The notes under the pieces were generated by a model that worked only from the letters and a program-made list of their open reading frames with translations, searched no databases and was not told the origin of the DNA. The position numbers and the translations under genes are program-made. A stretch of 32,000 nt of DNA from Crocosphaera subtropica ATCC 51142 (GTDB lineage Bacteria; Cyanobacteriota; Cyanobacteriia; Cyanobacteriales; Microcystaceae): NCBI RefSeq assembly GCF_000017845.1, contig NC_010546.1:420001-452000 (forward strand), read 5' to 3'. Positions 1,677-28,441 of the stretch are shown piece by piece; position 1 is the stretch's first letter; every line of letters begins with the position of its first letter.

Positions 1677-4600
1677 ATGAATTTTGTTGATTTTTTTATT
1701 AAACGCCCGGTTTTTTCTTCTGTTTGCGCCCTGCTAATTTTATTAGTGGGATTAATTAGTTTATTAAATTTACCTTTAGATCAATTTCCTGAAATTACTC
1801 CTACCAGGGTTCAAGTAGAATCCACTTATAATGGTGCCAGTGCCGAAGTAGTCGAGAATGCAGTTACTAATATTTTAGAACGGCAAATTAATGGGGTTGA
1901 AGGACTTAGATATATTAGTTCTAGTAGTAGTAATAGCGGAACCAGTAGTATTACTGTTACCTTTGATTCTTCGAGAAACCCTGATTTAGCTTCCGTTGAC
2001 GTACAAAATCAAGTATCTGTCGTGCAGTCCCAGTTACCCGATGCAGTACAAAGAACGGGGGTTCAAGTCACACGACAATCTAATAGTTTACTGTTAGGAA
2101 TTGGCTTATATAGTGATAATAATCGTTATGATAATGTCTTTTTGAGTAACTATGCTGACCAGTATTTAGTAGATGCCCTAAAACGCCTCGATGGTGTGGG
2201 AAATGTCCGAATTTTTGGGGAACGCCGTTACGCTATGCGTCTTTGGTTAGACCCCAATAAGTTAGCCAGTCGAGGGTTAACCACCCAAGACGTTGTTAAT
2301 GCTTTATCGGAACAAAATTTACAAGTAGGTGCCGGAAAAATAGGGGCAGAACCAGCACCCGACGGTCAACAGTTTCAGTTTGATTTACGGGCCATTAGTC
2401 AATTAAAAGATCCTAAAGAGTTTGAAAATTTACTATTGAAAACCGATGAAAACGGGGGGTTAGTTTACTTTAAAGATGTGGGAAGAGCAGAGTTAGGGGC
2501 GCAAGATTATAGTTCTTTTTTGAGGTTTCGAGGACAAGAAGCCGTCGGGATGGGAATCTATCAAAGAACGGGATCGAATGCGTTAGAAGTGGCTAAAAGA
2601 GTTGAACAAGAAATGGATCGCCTCTCCGCATTTTTCCCTCCTGATTTACAATATGTTGTGGCTTTTGATACCACTCAGTTTATCGAAGAATCTTTATCAG
2701 AAGTGGTCAAAACTCTCTTCATGGCCGTGGGTTTAGTTATTATTGTTATTTTAATCTTTTTACAAAATTGGAGAACCACGTTAATTCCGGCGTTAACCAT
2801 TCCATTAGCCCTGATTGGAACCTTTGCCTTTATTAAACTTTTTAATTTTTCTATTAATAGTTTAACCCTGTTTGGTTTAACCCTAGCTACCGGTATGGTG
2901 GTGGATGATGCCATCATTGTGGTTGAACAAATTAACCGTTATATTGAAGACGAAAATATGTCCCCTCAAGCAGCAGCCAGTAAGGCTATGGGGGAATTAT
3001 CATCGGCGGTTATTGCCACGTCTTTAGTGTTAATGGCAGTGTTTATTCCGGTGGCATTTTTCCCAGGAACCACAGGGGCTTTATATCGACAGTTTGCCCT
3101 AACTATTGCTTTTTCTATTGTTATTTCTACCTTTTTAGCCTTAACGTTAACCCCTTCTTTATGCGCTTTATTGTTAGAAAAGGGACAAAAATTACCGGGC
3201 TTTTTAGGAACTATTTTTAATCAATTTAATCACTTTTTAGACTGGGTAAAAGGACAATACAGGCGATCGCTTCATACCCTCTCTAATCTTCGCCTGGCGG
3301 TGGTGGGGGTCTTCGCCGTTTTATTATTACTCACAGCATGGTTATATACCAAGGTTCCTACCGCGTTTACCCCAGAAGAAGACCAAGGCTATTTCATCAC
3401 CATTATTCAAGCCCCTCAAGGGGTTTCCTTACAATATACTAGCGACGTGATGCGACAGGTAGAAAACATCATTTTAGAAGAACCTGATGTTAAAGCCACT
3501 TTTGCAGTTGGTGGGTTCGCTTTTGGAGGTAGTAGTGCCAACCAAGGGGTGATTTTTAGCCCCCTCAAACCCTTTAAAGAACGTCCTGGTCCTCAACATT
3601 CGGCGCAAGCCATCATTGGTAAATTATGGGGTAAATTTAGTCAAATACCCGAAGCAAATATTTTTCCGGTTAACCCCCCTGCCATTCGAGGTTTAAGTAA
3701 CTTTGGCGGTTTTGTTTATCAACTGCAAGATCAACAGGGAAGCGAAGATATTAATAAGTTAGTGCAGGTAATGGGTCAATTATTGGGGGCTGCTAACCAA
3801 AATCCTGCCATTGGCCAGGCATTTAGTCGCTTTTCTGCTGATACTCCTCAATTTCTAATTGAAGTCAATCGCAATAAAGCCCAAGCGTTGCAAGTCTCTA
3901 TCGATGATATTTTTAGCACCCTACAAACGGCGTTAGGATCTCGCTATGTGAACGATTTTACCTTACAACAACGCACCTATCGGGTCTATATACAAGCGGA
4001 TAAGGAATTTCGTGCCAACCCTCAAGATATCAATCAATTATATGTACGTTCCCAAAACGGTCAAATGGTTCCCTTATCTAATTTGGTCACTTTAACACCT
4101 ACCACCGGGGCCCAAACTATTAGCCATTACAACCTCTATCGTTCCGTGGAAATTAATGGCAGTCCTGCGCCGGGGGTGGGTTCGGGAACCGCCCTAGAAG
4201 CAATGGAAACCGTCTCTCAACAGGTTCTTCCACCGGGGTTTGGTTATGAATGGTCTGGGACTTCTCTTGAAGAACTAGACTCCGCCGGTCTGGCACCGAT
4301 TATTTTTGGTTTAGGACTGTTATTTGTTTTCTTGGTTTTAGCTGCACAATACGAAAATTATATTGATCCTTTAATTATTATTGTGGCGGTTCCTTTAGCT
4401 ATTTTAGGGGCATTAACGGCACAGTTATTAAGGGGCTTTGCTAACGATGTTTATTGTCAAATTGGTTTGGTAATGTTGATTGGTTTAGCCAGTAAAAATG
4501 CCATTTTAATTGTGGAGTTTGCTAACCAGTTAAGGGATGAGGGTTTACCGTTAGTTAAAGCAGCCATAGAAGCAGCCCAAGAACGCTTAAGACCTATTTT

Positions 4601-5033: not shown

Positions 5034-6770
5034 TTAATCGTGATTTTTTAGATAGGATTGTATCTTATGTGGTTTTCCCCAAAGCACCCGTTCTCGTTTA
5101 TAGATGACCATTCCCGGTTTGGCTCCTTTGGGTTTATAGACGTATTTAGGTTCGGTGTAAACCACGGGAACCTGCTCGCTTTGACGAGCCTTACTGTAAT
5201 AGGCAGCCCAGTCTGCAGCACAATGAAGATCGGCTTCATTGGGGACAGCACCCGGTTCAAGTCTCAATAATACATGACTGCCGGCACTTTCTTGAGTATG
5301 AAACCATAAGTCATAGTCCCCTGCCGTACGAAAGGTAAGGCGATCGTTCTGTCGGTTATTGCGACCAATCCACACCTCAAACCCTGAAGGGGTTTTGTGT
5401 TGATAGGGTTGGGACTCATCAGAAATATTTGACATTTGTTGAGCAGGAGAGGGTAAATAATTTTGTTGAATTAATTCTTCTTTGATTTCTTGTAAGGTTT
5501 GTAAGTCTTCAAGAGATTGATAATCATCGATTTGCTGCAAACTGTCTTCGACTTGTTCTAAATAATTAATCTCTTCTTGAACTTCGTTTAATAAGGGTTC
5601 GACTGCACCTTTTGCCCGTTTTAATTTTTGATGTTTTTTATAGCAAAGTTGAGCGTTTTGTATGGCATTTTTTTCAGGGTTTAAAGGAATTTTTATGGGT
5701 TTTTCTGTTTCAAAGTCCTTTAGAGTCATAGAATTCATTCCTGGTTCCCATAGATGGGAATGAGCCATTAATAAATCCCCTTTTTGACGGTATTCATCCG
5801 CCTCTGAGGATTGCTGAATTTTTTGATTAAAATTATTAGCTTTACTATATAGCTTTTTTAGACAAGATTTTAGTTTTTGTTGTAATTGATGTTTTACTTG
5901 TTTGAATTTTTCTTGATTAATTTTGTTGGCATAATAATCATTAATTAAAGTTTGTATGTTAATGATTTTATCAATGATTCCCCAACCTAAAACTGTATAA
6001 CCTTCTTCTGTATAGCCTGGTTTAAATTGTTTAGTTTTTAAACTTTTTAGCCAAAACTGCCAACATTGATATAATTTCTTCCAGTCTTTCTCTGTTAAAC
6101 TTTCTGTAGAATCTTGTGGGTTTAAACCAGCTTCTTTAATCATAGAAGAAGCAACGACAGGACTTAAACCACGATAACTATTCAATAATTGTTTTTTCAG
6201 AGAACCAGGGATTAAACTAACTCTTTCTTGCCATCTTGTTTGATCTTCTTCTAACTTTGGAAATGTCCCAGTTAACGCAGGGGGAAGTTCATAGGGTTGT
6301 CCAGTTTGTACCGTTCTAACTGTCGATTGATTGGCATTAACTTGATGAGCTACTGCTACAATTTGCTGCTTACTATCCGTTAAAATCACATTACTATATT
6401 TGCCCATAATTTCCACAAAAAGATGCCAAACTGGTTCATCCCCTGGACGTTTAGCAAATTGTAAATCAACCACCCTTTCCCAAGGAGAAATCATTTTTAA
6501 AGCGATGAGTGCAAACCCATTTAACTGATGACGTAATTGATCACTAAACGTGAAAGTATCGGGGGTTCTCGGTGGCGAATCTCCGATACATAATCTAGCA
6601 GCTTGAGGATGCCAAGAAATGGTTAACCAACTACGTTTTTTTAAGGTACGCAAAGCAATAAAAATGGTATAGCGATCGCGTTGATAAACCTGTTCAACTT
6701 TAGCAGGTATCCAATGAGTTTGTAGATCATAACAAATGGCGCTTAAGGTGGTGACATCAACAGATTGCAT
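5034..6770 (-). CDS. NFACT-family protein (RqcH / fibronectin-binding protein A-like ribosome quality control factor)
   Basis: 578-aa ORF. N-terminal NFACT-N region (LFVEIMGKYSNVILTD), a central Lys/Gln/Glu-rich coiled coil, and C-terminal NFACT-R/DUF814 (DLWFHTQESAGSHVLL). The size and architecture match bacterial RqcH. Confidence 0.85.
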   Translation of the reverse strand: MQSVDVTTLSAICYDLQTHWIPAKVEQVYQRDRYTIFIALRTLKKRSWLTISWHPQAARLCIGDSPPRTPDTFTFSDQLRHQLNGFALIALKMISPWERVVDLQFAKRPGDEPVWHLFVEIMGKYSNVILTDSKQQIVAVAHQVNANQSTVRTVQTGQPYELPPALTGTFPKLEEDQTRWQERVSLIPGSLKKQLLNSYRGLSPVVASSMIKEAGLNPQDSTESLTEKDWKKLYQCWQFWLKSLKTKQFKPGYTEEGYTVLGWGIIDKIINIQTLINDYYANKINQEKFKQVKHQLQQKLKSCLKKLYSKANNFNQKIQQSSEADEYRQKGDLLMAHSHLWEPGMNSMTLKDFETEKPIKIPLNPEKNAIQNAQLCYKKHQKLKRAKGAVEPLLNEVQEEINYLEQVEDSLQQIDDYQSLEDLQTLQEIKEELIQQNYLPSPAQQMSNISDESQPYQHKTPSGFEVWIGRNNRQNDRLTFRTAGDYDLWFHTQESAGSHVLLRLEPGAVPNEADLHCAADWAAYYSKARQSEQVPVVYTEPKYVYKPKGAKPGMVIYKRERVLWGKPHKIQSYLKNHD

Positions 6771-23288: not shown

Positions 23289-24050
23289 ATGGCCGAAACA
23301 ACAAGGGTTGTACCGGAGTTGTTTAAGGGTATCGCCCTTTTTACCCCAGGTGGTGATCTCGTTTATTGTGTCGATAACAACAAACAAGTCCATTGGCATT
23401 CTCAATTATGCCTAGTTTTACAGGAATTATTAAAGTTACCAGAACCCCCTCATTTCCTGGTTCCTGGTTACACGGCAACCATTGATCGTTGGTTTTGTAC
23501 CAGAGAGAAAAGGGTCAAAACAGTTGCTGAGGTTTATCCTGCCGTTCGTCGGTACGAACCGTTATTAAATGTTCTTTTTAATGTGAAGGACGTGGTTTGG
23601 ACAACAGCCAATTGGCAAGAAGAGGTTTGTGATCCAGTTGTCATTGAAACCTATCGTTCTCAGTTTCCTCAACTTTGGGAAAACCATGATTTGCTAGTGC
23701 GTTTAGATGAACGTTGGGAACAGGAGCTAAAAACTCAATTTAATCCTGTCGAGACTCAGAAAAAAGATGAATTTGAAACCAATCAAGGCTATATTTTACG
23801 TCTTTTTGTTTCCGGTCATCACCCTTCCACTAAGCAAACGTTAAAAAAGATCCATCATCTCCTCGAAACCCAGTTAAGTCATCCTTATACCTTAAAAGTT
23901 ATCGATATTGCTAAACACCCAGAAATGGCCGAAACCCACCATGTTTCTGCAACGCCTACCTTGGTGCGTGTTTGGCCGAAACCGACAAGACGGATTGTCG
24001 GAGAATTGACAGATTTATCTAGGGTTCTACAACTGATCACCACAAATTAA
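23289..24050 (+). CDS. Elongated KaiB-domain protein (unassigned ~166-aa N-terminal region plus C-terminal KaiB/thioredoxin-like domain)
   Basis: 253 aa. Residues 167-253 (YILRLFVSGHHPSTKQTLKKIHHLLETQLSHPYTLKVIDIAKHPEMAETHHVSATPTLVRVWPKPTRRIVGELTDLSRVLQLI) align without gaps to the KaiB at 14900-15220. By hand, 34 of 83 positions are identical. Confidence 0.88.
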   Translation: MAETTRVVPELFKGIALFTPGGDLVYCVDNNKQVHWHSQLCLVLQELLKLPEPPHFLVPGYTATIDRWFCTREKRVKTVAEVYPAVRRYEPLLNVLFNVKDVVWTTANWQEEVCDPVVIETYRSQFPQLWENHDLLVRLDERWEQELKTQFNPVETQKKDEFETNQGYILRLFVSGHHPSTKQTLKKIHHLLETQLSHPYTLKVIDIAKHPEMAETHHVSATPTLVRVWPKPTRRIVGELTDLSRVLQLITTN

Positions 24051-25094: not shown

Positions 25095-26180
25095 ATGAGT
25101 AGTGATCATTTATTATCCAGTTACGATTATGATTTACCTCCAGAATTAATTGCCCAAAATCCCATGATTCCTAGGGATCATTCGCGGTTATTAGTGATTA
25201 ATTCTCCCACCACCCATATTCATAGCGTTTTTCGGGATTTACCTAAGTGGTTATTACCAGGGGATTTATTGGTGTTTAATAATACTCGTGTCATTCCTGC
25301 ACGACTTTATGGAAAAAAAACCACAGGTGCGCCTGTAGAAATTTTATTATTAGAAGAAAAAGAGCCTTTTTGTTGGTTGGCGTTAGTTAAACCTGGAAAA
25401 CGGTTTAAAATTGGCAGCGAAATTCATTTTCCATTAGATCACAATGATGATAAAGAAGATATGTTTCTAGCAGCTACTGTTTTAGATAGGGATGAAGAAA
25501 CCGGGGGAAGATTACTCAAGTTTAACGTTGATTCTCTTGATTTATTTTGGAAAAAAATCGAAGAAATTGGTCAAATTCCTTTCCCTCCTTATGTTACTGA
25601 ATCTGAAGCTGATTCGTCTCAATATCAAACGATTTATGCTCAAAAACCTGGGGCTGTCGCTGCACCCACCGCCGGACTTCATTTTACAGATGAACTCTTA
25701 GACAATTTACAGCACAAAAGAATTAATCAAGCTTATATTACGTTACACGTCGGGTTAGGTACATTTCGTCCCGTTGATATGGAAAATATCAAAGAACATA
25801 AGATGCACCAGGAATGGATAGAAGTTCCTGATGTAACCGTTGAAAAAATCAAAGAAACAAAAGCCAATGGGGGTCGAGTCATCGCCGTGGGAACCACCGT
25901 AGTAAGAGCCTTAGAAGGAGCAGCAAAAGCAGCAGAAATGGAAGGGAAAAAAGACTTAAAGGCTTTTAGAGGCAAAACAGATATTTTTATTTATCCTGGA
26001 TATTCTTGGCGTGTTATTGATGGCATGATTACCAATTTTCACTTACCAAAATCCAGTTTGTTGATGTTAGTCAGTGCTTTAATTGGGCGAGAAAGATTAT
26101 TAGATTTATATCAAATAGCGATTAAAGAAAAGTATCGCTTTTATTCTTTTGGAGATGGAATGTTAATTTTATTGTCCTGA
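25095..26180 (+). CDS. queA: S-adenosylmethionine:tRNA ribosyltransferase-isomerase
   Basis: 361 aa. YDYDLPPELIAQNPMIPRDHSRLLV, AAPTAGLHFT, VGTTVVRALE and ITNFHLPKSSLLMLVSA are QueA hallmarks. Confidence 0.95.
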   Translation: MSSDHLLSSYDYDLPPELIAQNPMIPRDHSRLLVINSPTTHIHSVFRDLPKWLLPGDLLVFNNTRVIPARLYGKKTTGAPVEILLLEEKEPFCWLALVKPGKRFKIGSEIHFPLDHNDDKEDMFLAATVLDRDEETGGRLLKFNVDSLDLFWKKIEEIGQIPFPPYVTESEADSSQYQTIYAQKPGAVAAPTAGLHFTDELLDNLQHKRINQAYITLHVGLGTFRPVDMENIKEHKMHQEWIEVPDVTVEKIKETKANGGRVIAVGTTVVRALEGAAKAAEMEGKKDLKAFRGKTDIFIYPGYSWRVIDGMITNFHLPKSSLLMLVSALIGRERLLDLYQIAIKEKYRFYSFGDGMLILLS

Positions 26181-27311
26181 TGCCATTAACATCACCCGAA
26201 ACCCAATTTGACTAACCCCAACTGCTTGAGGATGATAGGCATAACGGGAAGCACAACGACAATGATAAGCATCTTCGTCCCAGGAACCTCCTCTTAAAAC
26301 ACGACGAGTTTCCTGTTGAGACGATGAGCGGGGTTTTCCTGAAGTAGAAGCGTTATCATAGCTAGAATACCAAGCATCAGCGCACCATTCCCAAACGTTA
26401 CCATGTAAATCATATAACCCGAATCCATTGGGATAAAATGCGCTTACCGATGTGGTTTCTTGACGATAAAGACTAGAACTTTCCCCTGCATACAAACGTT
26501 TCGCCATATAATTAGCCAAATCCCCCGTTAACGTCGGTCCAAAATAAAATGGACTGGTGGTTTCTCCACGACAGGCGTATTCCCATTGTGCCTCACTAGG
26601 CAGTTGATAGGGGCGTTGGGTGTATTGAGAGAGGCGATCGCAAAATTCCACTGCATCTTCCCAGGAAAGAGACTCTACCGGGCGATCGCTTCCCTTGAAA
26701 CAAGAAGGGTCAACGCCTAAATCTCGGTTAACTTTGGGATATTGAGCGACAATTTCCCATTGCTTTTGGGTGATAGGAAATTTTCCCAAGAAAAACCCTT
26801 CTAAGGTTACAGTATGCTGGGGTTGCTCACATACTTGAGATCCTGGTTCATCAGAAGTTGAACCCATCACAAAGGTTCCCCCAGGAATGTAGATCATTTC
26901 TAAGATGATCCCGTCTCCCAACTCTTCTTTAAAACATTGAGACTCACCCTTAAGCCGTTTTAAAATGGTTCCTGTTTCATCGATAATTGGCCTTTCAAAG
27001 AAAAATTCTTGTAGAGGAGGGGTTTTAAAGGATAAGGTAGGTTGAGACTTTTTCTCTTTCTCTTTAGTCTGAATCACATTAGAAGATTTATCGAGGGTGG
27101 GAGAAGATTCTAAACGTTCAAGCCGTTTTTCAACATTTACCAGTCTTTCTTCAATTGAAGAAGATGGTTTTTCTTTTTCATCTGTTTCTAGATATTGAGA
27201 TAAAGCTTGAGTGATTACCTTAGACTTAGGAAGACCAACAGCATTAGTATGAGCTAATAATTTTTCGTATAATTTCGGCGGTATTCTCACACTAACCTGA
27301 ATATTACTCAT
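26169..27311 (-). CDS. Ribbon-helix-helix domain fused to an FGE-sulfatase (SUMF1/EgtB/PvdO-type) domain
   Basis: 380 aa. N-terminus MSNIQVSVRIPPKLYEKLLAHTNAVGLPKSKVITQALSQYLE has the beta-alpha-alpha RHH pattern. A short coiled segment follows (IEERLVNVEKRLERLE). From about residue 135 the FGE-sulfatase motifs appear: LEMIYIPGGTFVMGS, QPQHTVTLEGFFLGKFPITQKQW, PVESLSWEDAVEFC, LPSEAQWEYACRG, YDLHGNVWEWC and LRGGSW. Confidence 0.85.
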   Translation of the reverse strand: MSNIQVSVRIPPKLYEKLLAHTNAVGLPKSKVITQALSQYLETDEKEKPSSSIEERLVNVEKRLERLESSPTLDKSSNVIQTKEKEKKSQPTLSFKTPPLQEFFFERPIIDETGTILKRLKGESQCFKEELGDGIILEMIYIPGGTFVMGSTSDEPGSQVCEQPQHTVTLEGFFLGKFPITQKQWEIVAQYPKVNRDLGVDPSCFKGSDRPVESLSWEDAVEFCDRLSQYTQRPYQLPSEAQWEYACRGETTSPFYFGPTLTGDLANYMAKRLYAGESSSLYRQETTSVSAFYPNGFGLYDLHGNVWEWCADAWYSSYDNASTSGKPRSSSQQETRRVLRGGSWDEDAYHCRCASRYAYHPQAVGVSQIGFRVMLMASGQ

Positions 27312-27330
27312 AAGAATGAAGAGAAAGACT

Positions 27331-27350
27331 TAACAATTAACGATAACGAT
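27331..27350 (-). promoter_or_regulatory. Tandem heptamer array upstream of the RHH-FGE gene (operator candidate)
   Basis: The plus strand reads TAACAAT TAACGAT AACGAT. The minus strand reads ATCGTT ATCGTTA ATTGTTA. It lies 20-39 nt upstream of the ATG at 27311. RHH proteins typically bind short tandem or inverted repeats. No binding data. Confidence 0.25.
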
Positions 27351-27493
27351 CTGCAAGCATAACAAATTTTACTCAATTTTCACAATCATTTTTCTTTTCT
27401 TAATGTCAGTTGAGAGAATAGACTCTAAGTTGAATACGATTTGACCAACTTAATGATAGAATCTCTGAGACTTTATCCCCAAAATGCTAAGCC

Positions 27494-28441
27494 ATGATCC
27501 AACTGAAACCCCGAACCCTCAGACTATTTCATCTTATGACCTTGAGTAGTGGGTTAATTTTCCTCTTATCTTCGGTTACCCTTGCTCAAGGGGACACTTC
27601 TGATCATGCGATCGCTAAATTTAATTGGTTTAAAGCCATTATTTTGGGCATGGTACAGGGGTTAACGGAATTTTTACCTATTAGTAGCACAGCCCATTTA
27701 AAGGTGGTTCCTGTGGCGTTAGGATGGGGTGATCCGGGGGTTGCTTTTACGGCAGTGATTCAATTAGGTAGTATTGCTGCAGTGTTGTGGTATTTTTGGT
27801 CAGATTTAAGTCAAATTACCAGAGGCATGATCAAAGCCATTCGTTATTCTGATTATGAATCCCATGATTTTCGTTTAGGGGTGGGTATTGCTTTAGGAAC
27901 GTTACCGATTGTCTTTTTTGGTTTATTAATGAAACTATTAATTACTGATTTAGATAATTCACCGTTGCGTAGTATTGGAGTTATTGCTGGTGCTTCTATT
28001 TTCATGGCATTATTGTTAGCTTTATCGGAAAAGATCAGCACCCACAAACGCAGTTTTGAGGAATTAAGTTGGCAAGACGGACTGTTAATGGGGTTAGCTC
28101 AATCCTTAGCTTTAATTCCTGGGGTATCTCGTTCAGGATCAACCATAACCTCTGGTTTATTTCTTAATTTAGAACGAGCGACAGCAGCTAGATTTTCTTT
28201 TTTATTAGGCATTCCAGCCATTACTTTAGCCGGGTTAGTGGAGTTAAAAGAAGTGTTTGATGTGGGACTTTCTAATGATATTATTGTTCCACTCATTGTC
28301 GGGGTTATTTCTTCTGCTATCTTTTCTTATTTAGCGATCGCTTGGTTAATTCGTTATTTACAAAAACAAGATACTTGGATTTTTGTTTGGTACCGTTTAG
28401 GGTTTGGTTTATTTATTTTAGGTTCTATGTTTTTCAATTAA
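27494..28441 (+). CDS. uppP: Undecaprenyl-diphosphate phosphatase
   Basis: 315 aa. Motifs GLTEFLPISSTAHL and PGVSRSGSTITSG, with multiple TM helices. There is about a 40-aa N-terminal extension containing a signal-peptide-like helix (LSSGLIFLLSSVTLAQG). An internal ATG at codon 15 is an alternative start. Confidence 0.92.
   Translation: MIQLKPRTLRLFHLMTLSSGLIFLLSSVTLAQGDTSDHAIAKFNWFKAIILGMVQGLTEFLPISSTAHLKVVPVALGWGDPGVAFTAVIQLGSIAAVLWYFWSDLSQITRGMIKAIRYSDYESHDFRLGVGIALGTLPIVFFGLLMKLLITDLDNSPLRSIGVIAGASIFMALLLALSEKISTHKRSFEELSWQDGLLMGLAQSLALIPGVSRSGSTITSGLFLNLERATAARFSFLLGIPAITLAGLVELKEVFDVGLSNDIIVPLIVGVISSAIFSYLAIAWLIRYLQKQDTWIFVWYRLGFGLFILGSMFFN

Follow-up and report, generated by a model that had tools for sequence, protein, structure and literature searches.

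Within a 32,000-nt stretch of the genome of the cyanobacterium Crocosphaera subtropica ATCC 51142 (contig NC_010546.1, positions 420,001-452,000; hereafter the window, to which all positions refer), the minus strand carries at 26169-27311 a gene for a protein of 380 amino acids (aa) that joins an N-terminal ribbon-helix-helix (RHH) domain to a C-terminal FGS domain, a module with the fold of the formylglycine-generating enzyme (FGE). On balance, we consider it probable that this protein, here called RHH-FGS, is a cytoplasmic one-component transcription regulator that is modulated by a ligand and acts on its own promoter and probably also on uppP/bacA, the divergent neighboring gene for undecaprenyl-diphosphate phosphatase; we infer this regulatory role from the architecture of the protein and its genomic context. 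The gene has an ATG start in the list of open reading frames, and its product is 100% identical to the database entry ACB49790.1/WP_009546527.1, which is annotated as "unknown" or as "SUMF1/EgtB/PvdO family nonheme iron enzyme". Along the protein, RHH domain, zipper-like helix, linker and FGS domain follow one another, and the N-terminal sequence MSNIQVSVRI is kept in 16 orthologous loci.

An earlier reading of this DNA, made from its letters without database searches (the sequence-only reading), had placed an RHH domain at the N-terminus, and profile and structure comparisons bear this out (aa 1-46; 27174-27311, minus strand; β-strand at aa 3-10, helix A at 12-25, helix B at 29-46). Over aa 6-42, the Pfam scores of RHH-FGS itself fall just short of the cut-offs for RHH_3 (20.7 bits versus 21.6) and RHH_1 (18.6 bits versus 20.5), whereas several homologs score above the RHH_1 cut-off. 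Among 13 full-length family members, RHH_1 is detected in 11 and RHH_3 in nine at E < 0.1. Furthermore, aa 1-70 have 65 free-standing homologs of 69-77 aa (best E-value 5e-31; as much as 55% identity, with 99% of the query covered), and the source records of several name them CopG-family regulators; the homologs P0121, P0122, P0126 and P0127, which match RHH-FGS at E-values of 1e-16 to 5e-31, exceed the RHH_1 cut-off with 21.7-29.3 bits. When compared with the PDB, a profile built from 16 family sequences matched CopG (1b01) over its full length (E = 9.5e-5) and ORF56 (1e-4), as well as StnY, MazE6 and AvtR.

The AlphaFold2 (AF2) model agrees with these matches, having an extended segment at aa 1-11 followed by helices at 12-25, 29-46 and 53-68/69, and thus the β-α-α arrangement of the RHH superfamily. 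All top Foldseek matches in the PDB are RHH proteins (ORF56, MatP, the PutA DNA-binding domain, Rv0298, CopG, TacA, AmrZ and Arc), RHH antitoxins among them. Foldseek probabilities reach 0.99 while E-values are only 0.1-1, because the RHH domain is small (45 residues) and is modeled with a predicted local distance difference test (pLDDT) score of about 67. Profile searches having returned RHH calls, the assignment stands: as judged by sequence comparison and the modeled fold, the N-terminus is a genuine CopG-type RHH domain.

Residues Q5, S7, R9, K29 and S30 are invariant among the 13 family members, which range down to 50% identity. By analogy with solved RHH-DNA complexes, we take N3, Q5, S7 and R9 to be the outward-facing residues of the strand and K29/S30 to lie at the start of helix B, with Q5, S7 and R9 presumably facing the DNA and K29/S30 presumably contacting the phosphate. 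The alternating polar residues N3, Q5, S7 and R9 parallel the strand residues Q9, N11 and R13 of Arc. On this analogy, the invariance of the DNA-facing residues argues for retained DNA binding and is indirect support for a putative RHH-FGS dimer that would pair through the β-ribbon and bind specific DNA sequences.

Downstream of the RHH domain, a leucine-zipper-like helix, IEERLVNVEKRLERLE (aa 53-68; 27108-27155, minus strand), displays hydrophobic residues at 4-3-4-3 spacing, and designed coiled coils match the family profile over positions 35-67. Across the family alignment, four of its residues (E61, R63, L67 and E68) never change, and the free-standing homologs also have this helix, which, on the model, probably provides an additional element for dimerization or tetramerization. 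The helix is followed by a Ser/Thr/Lys/Pro-rich linker (aa 69-97; 27021-27107, minus strand), the sequence and length of which vary across the family and which has a pLDDT of about 30 in the AF2 model. Both features agree with the short coiled segment and linker of the sequence-only reading.

PF03781, the FGE-sulfatase (C-type-lectin-like) profile, matches aa 138-373 (26193-26900, minus strand) with an E-value of 3e-51 and is covered at positions 4-253 of 255; the domain is therefore complete, as had been proposed. It is preceded by an all-β extension (aa 98-132; 26916-27020, minus strand) with AF2 strands at 101-110 and 116-132, and the alignment of RHH-FGS to caspase-FGE paralogs already begins at about aa 98-125. 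Its best relatives in the PDB are PvdO (5hha, 5.8e-27), TvpA (2y3c) and human FGE (E of about 1e-23), and RHH-FGS thus shares a common fold and significant sequence similarity with SUMF1/FGE and PvdO. Unlike SUMF1/FGE, however, it lacks both Cu-binding cysteines and has no signal peptide at its RHH N-terminus; as none is apparent in our own reading of the sequence, RHH-FGS would be cytoplasmic.

The doubt that the sequence-only reading had raised about aldehyde-forming activity, on the grounds that the C-x4-C pair of FGE is wanting, proved justified. This Cu(I)-binding, catalytic pair (C336 and C341 in the human enzyme) is absent: in two independent HMMER alignments, C336 either falls in a three-residue insertion missing from RHH-FGS or lies opposite E346, while C341 aligns with A348 and the structural C346 with C353. 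C351 aligns with a cysteine of TvpA. The two cysteines noted earlier are present in the sequence AYHCRCASRY (aa 348-357), and C351 is invariant, but C353 is replaced by serine in many orthologs, so that their C-R-C spacing is no conserved feature. Every NCBIfam score is far under its cut-off, the best match being PvdO (E-value 1.8e-36; 125.7 versus an equivalog cut-off of 500). With the catalytic residues missing and NCBIfam scores this low, we rejected the possibility that the protein is a genuine FGE, PvdO or EgtB enzyme; by sequence, the FGE-fold domain is confirmed as non-catalytic.

The protein might nevertheless be a trigger enzyme, in which an active FGE-fold domain performs PvdO/EgtB-like oxidative chemistry on a small molecule and the RHH domain provides PutA-like autoregulation. 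PvdO is the best match in both the PDB and NCBIfam, the NCBI name refers to a nonheme iron enzyme, and PutA, the DNA-binding domain of which is among the fold matches, sets a precedent for an RHH-enzyme fusion. We consider this very unlikely, however, given the distance to the equivalog cut-offs and the loss of both Cu-binding cysteines. Moreover, RHH-FGS has no counterpart of the iron-binding DinB domain found in EgtB/OvoA, since only its FGE-like part matches, and the closest relatives are non-catalytic, TvpA-like FGS modules attached to caspases and kinases.

These TvpA-like modules, which occur in fusions with caspase, kinase, TIR, EAD and STAND domains and as targets of diversity-generating retroelements (DGRs), share with RHH-FGS the PF03781 domain at 41-59% identity, the all-β extension, the C-terminal position and the lack of FGE catalytic cysteines. 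The all-β extension is a hallmark of TvpA-like FGS domains according to Kaur et al. (PMC7159879). In the literature, FGS domains are regarded as modules for binding or sensing that invariably occupy the C-terminal side of the other domains in a protein (PMC7159879; also PMC5758913, PMC12642450). RHH-FGS has the extension and carries its output domain at the N-terminus, and its C-terminus is, by sequence comparison, a complete TvpA-like FGS-type PF03781 domain without the FGE catalytic cysteines. Whereas the known modules are joined to an N-terminal protease, kinase or NTPase, a DNA-binding domain takes this place in RHH-FGS. The view taken in the sequence-only reading, that FGE domains frequently serve as non-catalytic, sensor-like modules in cyanobacteria, agrees with the domain content of the database matches and with the literature, in which caspases, kinases, TIR proteins and STAND proteins of cyanobacteria are described as carrying such sensor or binding modules (PMC7159879, PMC5758913, PMC12642450).

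The C-terminal loop of the domain, RGGSWDEDAYHCRCASRYAYHPQAVGVSQIGFRV (aa 340-373; 26193-26294, minus strand), aligns with the C-terminal stretch of TvpA with one single-residue gap only, a stretch that is the variable, ligand-binding region of that DGR target (PMC5758913, PMC7159879). In the RHH-FGS family, W344, D345, C351, A354, R356, P361, G370, R372 and V373 of this loop are invariant; unlike DGR-target FGS domains, the protein thus has a C-terminal face that is conserved and not hypervariable. The combination of a hypervariable C-terminal region, template repeat and reverse transcriptase was not found in the window and the ortholog alignment, and in the 32-kb window the 3' end of the gene has no counterpart that could be a template repeat. 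For this locus, the DGR-target assignment was rejected because there is no template repeat in the window and the C-terminal face is conserved.

The free-standing relatives of the RHH-plus-zipper module, which the sequence-only reading had missed as a source of the RHH domain, are the first genes of several conflict-type operons. These comprise (i) RHH-Pepco-caspase/FGE operons (locus L019, 4001-6342; L028, 2702-3309); (ii) RHH-TIR-metallophosphatase-x-kinase operons of Microcystis (L033-L035, 3001-6210), where x stands for a further gene; (iii) an RHH-x-x-x-NACHT (NACHT/nSTAND) operon (L030, 738-3950); and (iv) a MerR-RHH-x-caspase/STAND operon of Gloeocapsa (L017, 2316-6210). The gene following the RHH gene is often within 4-5 nt or overlaps it. 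Judged from such arrangements, the free-standing proteins look like a leader-regulator family, or antitoxin-like partners, of cyanobacterial defense operons, and the RHH module of RHH-FGS appears to derive from these leader genes. Over the RHH-plus-zipper region, free-standing CopG-family proteins such as Microcystis P0318 and Gloeocapsa P0123 are 40-55% identical to RHH-FGS, from which they differ in having no FGS fusion and in the residues of the strand (SVSVGVR versus NIQVSVR), and a different DNA specificity is therefore expected.

Five promoters of free-standing RHH genes (L017, L026, L031 and L033, each at 2926-3003, and L030 at 663-740) are conserved across genera, with AGTTRAACAT, the extended -10 element TTGTTAGCAT, AGTTAAACAC and then GGAGGTAAGAC before the ATG. 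They contain two direct-repeat boxes with GTTAA, 21 nt apart, on either side of the extended -10, which are likely to be an autoregulatory operator, as predicted from their sequence. The promoter of RHH-FGS resembles these promoters in its TTTGTTA-type extended -10 and adjoining GTTA boxes; in contrast, their AGTTAAACA boxes are unlike the heptamers found in the window.

Between the RHH-FGS gene and uppP lie 182 nt (27312-27493). The best-conserved non-coding element here is an invariant 19-nt block, AAAATTTGTTATGCTTGCA (27352-27370, minus strand), which would include an extended -10 (TG at 27364-27363, TATGCT at 27361-27356). A candidate -35 hexamer, TTGTGA (27380-27385, minus strand), lies 18 nt upstream of TATGCT, so that we read TTGTGA-N18-TGTTATGCT as the predicted -35 and extended -10 of the RHH-FGS promoter. 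A scan for consensus sigma-70 promoters did not call this promoter, because it matches at only 8 of 12 positions. Just downstream of it, the sequence-only reading had described three tandem heptamers. The array is indeed present at 27331-27350, 20-39 nt upstream of the ATG (TAACAAT/TAACGA/TAACGAT on the plus strand; ATCGTTA/TCGTTA/ATTGTTA on the gene strand, that is, three TYGTTAW boxes, with minus-strand matches at 27330, 27337 and 27343), but its units measure 7, 6 and 7 nt and are thus not three clean heptamers. A fourth TYGTTAW box (27359-27365) falls within the 19-nt block. If the -35 and -10 elements are correctly predicted, the array would begin at about +1, in the 5' untranslated region (UTR).

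As mean pairwise identity among nine Crocosphaera lineages, the -10 block reaches 0.99 and the -35 zone 0.84, compared with 0.67 for the distal UTR. K-mer footprinting against the five most distant loci likewise recovered the -10 block (p of about 0.005) and not the heptamers. In the window, TYGTTAW occurs 33 times versus 30 expected, and the four copies within 36 nt at the RHH-FGS promoter are the sole such cluster; as the motif was defined from these same copies, however, this clustering is no independent test. Given its conservation, the -10 block is an operator candidate at least as good as the array. On the uppP side, the operator-like box that the free-standing relatives have is matched well at one place only, AGTTGAATAC (27428-27437, plus strand). 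By a weight matrix derived from other loci, this match ranks 9th of 64,000 positions, a score equaled by 5% of random 182-nt segments (p of about 0.05), and outside the window group L011 alone has the segment.

The divergent partner uppP (27494-28441, plus strand; Pfam BacA, E = 1e-80) is our candidate for a further regulated gene, its pairing with RHH-FGS having also escaped the sequence-only reading. The two genes remain divergently paired in the window, in L001-L013 and in L015, and thus in 15 of 17 loci, while at least five different genes are found on each outer flank of the pair. That the pairing is kept while the outer neighbors change is the main argument for uppP as a regulatory target.

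From these observations, we propose that an RHH dimer, possibly a dimer of dimers held together by the zipper helix, would bind the RHH-FGS promoter around -10/+1, the candidate sites being the invariant TTTGTTATGCT block and the TYGTTAW boxes downstream of it. Binding would repress the gene itself and would probably also control uppP, and a conserved ligand on the C-terminal FGS face would alter DNA binding. The protein would accordingly combine a regulator and a sensor taken from caspase/Pepco/TIR-type conflict systems and moved to a housekeeping locus.

Several results weigh against this proposal. The heptamer zone, at 0.64 identity versus 0.59 at four-fold degenerate sites and 99% in the -10 block, evolves almost neutrally, although a periodic TT.A signal remains in it, and identical heptamers are confined to the four closest genomes. 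The array was reported neither by Tandem Repeats Finder nor by a second repeat finder, and the heptamers score badly with the weight matrix of the free-standing relatives' operator boxes. Upstream of the gene in the five most distant loci, GTTA occurs five times versus 1.7 expected (P = 0.03), a weak signal as the comparison was made post hoc. When the 182-nt region is shuffled with its dinucleotides preserved, three copies of any 4-mer at 6-7 nt spacing arise in 3% of cases, and the 32-kb window contains nine such places; the array is thus only marginally more than chance. The heptamers are therefore not established as the operator that they had been taken for, and the array is, by sequence, a possible but unconvincing one. 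As to uppP, the two most distant orthologs (L014 and L016) are not beside it, and among related genomes the pairing may be inherited synteny rather than a sign of function. Finally, the full-length AF2 model, built with 13 sequences, has a pLDDT of 56, too poor for the ligand site to be inspected, and a literature search by guessed locus tags (cce_0438-0440) and accessions (ACB49790, B1WNE8) gave no match.

The marginal, poorly conserved array would suit a protein that is not a DNA binder at all, in which the N-terminus is only a dimerization or antitoxin-like partner-binding element and the repeats are chance occurrences in an AT-rich 5' UTR. RHH antitoxins are among the fold matches, and free-standing homologs are separated by 4-5 nt from a downstream gene for the pore-forming toxin Pepco, which resembles an antitoxin-toxin layout. 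However, RHH antitoxins bind DNA themselves, no toxin gene adjoins RHH-FGS, and the five invariant residues discussed above face DNA by analogy, so that we regard this explanation as improbable.

The origin of the RHH module raises another explanation, that the protein is a remnant of a conflict system in which the FGS domain recognizes a phage or invader molecule and the RHH domain de-represses defense genes elsewhere, the adjacency of uppP being incidental. This would account for the conflict operons headed by the free-standing homologs (Pepco/caspase-FGE, TIR/metallophosphatase/kinase, NACHT/nSTAND and caspase-STAND) and for the faster divergence of RHH-FGS relative to its neighbors (in L004, 79% identity versus 88% for UppP, 87% for QueA and 95% for a 129-aa hypothetical protein). 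It would also fit reports of FGE domains as defense sensors, in protease-effector modules (PMC12642450) and in VMAP/iSTAND systems (PMC7159879). In contrast, the window holds no effector or defense gene: its wider neighborhood is of the housekeeping type (Thf1, an LmeA-like protein, an MCP, a T2SSE ATPase, ScpB, a Rieske protein, a KaiB-domain protein and Tmemb_14), and PADLOC returned no match. Furthermore, the ligand face is conserved instead of diversified, with no DGR template repeat in the window, and the uppP pairing has outlasted rearrangements on both sides. We therefore consider a conflict remnant unlikely. Within the regulatory proposal, a more specific version is about as doubtful, namely that RHH-FGS is a domesticated immune-type sensor whose FGS domain senses a conserved endogenous, envelope-related molecule and thereby sets the transcription of uppP and of its own gene. 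On this version, a lectin-fold FGS module of the kind that ordinarily sets off caspase, TIR or Pepco death effectors would have become coupled directly to a DNA-binding domain.

A genome scan located the RHH-FGS fusion in 16 further species-level genomes, all of Crocosphaera or related Microcystaceae, and the proteins with this architecture fall into about 27 clusters at 90% identity. An exhaustive search of 1.84 billion protein representatives with a profile of the RHH-zipper module gave 1,013 matches; among the best 150 of these, free-standing proteins of small size predominate, and a single cluster, P0024, is an FGE fusion. The module was also seen fused to HATPase_c of the histidine-kinase type (P0140, 351 aa) and to a trypsin-like peptidase (P0262, 264 aa). 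The sequence-only reading knew of no characterized protein with this architecture, and in our literature search no paper, by title and abstract, pairs RHH with an FGE-sulfatase domain, those containing both terms being unrelated.

Compared with the CopG, ORF56 and Arc repressors (RHH_1, RHH_3), with which RHH-FGS shares the β-strand and two helices of its first 46 residues, the protein has an additional zipper helix, linker and 280-aa C-terminal domain, and its own Pfam scores are just under the thresholds. In its predicted logic, a larger C-terminal module governing an N-terminal RHH domain, it is closer to NikR, PutA and MatP. The C-terminal domains of NikR (an ACT-like nickel domain) and PutA (proline dehydrogenase/P5CDH), however, are unrelated to FGS. 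In MatP, the RHH domain is coupled to a coiled-coil domain, and the MatP RHH and PutA DNA-binding domains are among the top Foldseek matches. NikR, PutA and MetJ are precedents for RHH domains coupled to ligand or enzyme domains; we know of no characterized RHH regulator with an FGE-fold partner.

If the proposal is correct, RHH-FGS would add a new class of sensor to the few RHH one-component regulators (NikR, PutA, MetJ) and would demonstrate that the regulator and sensor parts of defense operons can be recombined for other use. If the link to uppP is real, it would suggest that unicellular diazotrophic cyanobacteria control the recycling of their lipid carrier in an unsuspected way, and if the domesticated-sensor version holds, RHH-FGS would be the first transcription factor gated by a ligand through an FGE fold. 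Few sensor modules are as common in the conflict and signaling proteins of cyanobacteria as FGE-fold FGS domains. No ligand is named for them in PMC5758913, PMC7159879 or PMC12642450. As RHH-FGS is small and soluble, with a conserved ligand face and an output that could be read at the 182-bp region, it would offer a tractable handle on FGS ligands.

Within the window, RHH-FGS is not linked to a DGR, to vWA-MoxR, to Pepco or to any other effector, and there is no sulfatase gene among the neighboring genes scanned. Two further candidates were rejected: a toxin-antitoxin module, as neither the open reading frame list nor the neighbor scan revealed a toxin gene adjoining RHH-FGS, and a defense island, in view of the housekeeping neighbors and the lack of a PADLOC match. 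An Rfam scan of the window gave no match, and thus no structured RNA in the RHH-FGS/uppP intergenic region; no terminator-like hairpin was found in 26000-27600. Judged from gene orientation alone, the RHH-FGS gene appears monocistronic.

Directly before the RHH-FGS start codon (27312-27328), no Shine-Dalgarno-like sequence was found; the segment contains an AAGA repeat at 7 and 6 nt spacing, which on the gene strand reads as TCTT and is rich in pyrimidines. The probable uppP -10 (TAGAAT) and the start codon of uppP flank a 9-nt palindrome, TCTCAGAGA (27462-27470), which lies within the conserved block GGGGTAAAGTCTCAGAGATTYTATCAT (minus strand) and which most Crocosphaera loci retain. In L014, a polyprenyl synthetase gene (5341-6312) is located 1.5 kb downstream of the fusion gene, a second, possibly coincidental, link to isoprenoid carriers. 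Among the other neighbors, the KaiB-domain protein (253 aa; 23289-24050) has its KaiB domain confined to the C-terminal 80 residues (aa 171-249), and the 170 aa before it are without domain assignment. Finally, queA (25095-26180, plus strand) is convergent to the RHH-FGS gene, and the 3' ends of the two genes overlap by 12 nt (26169-26180).

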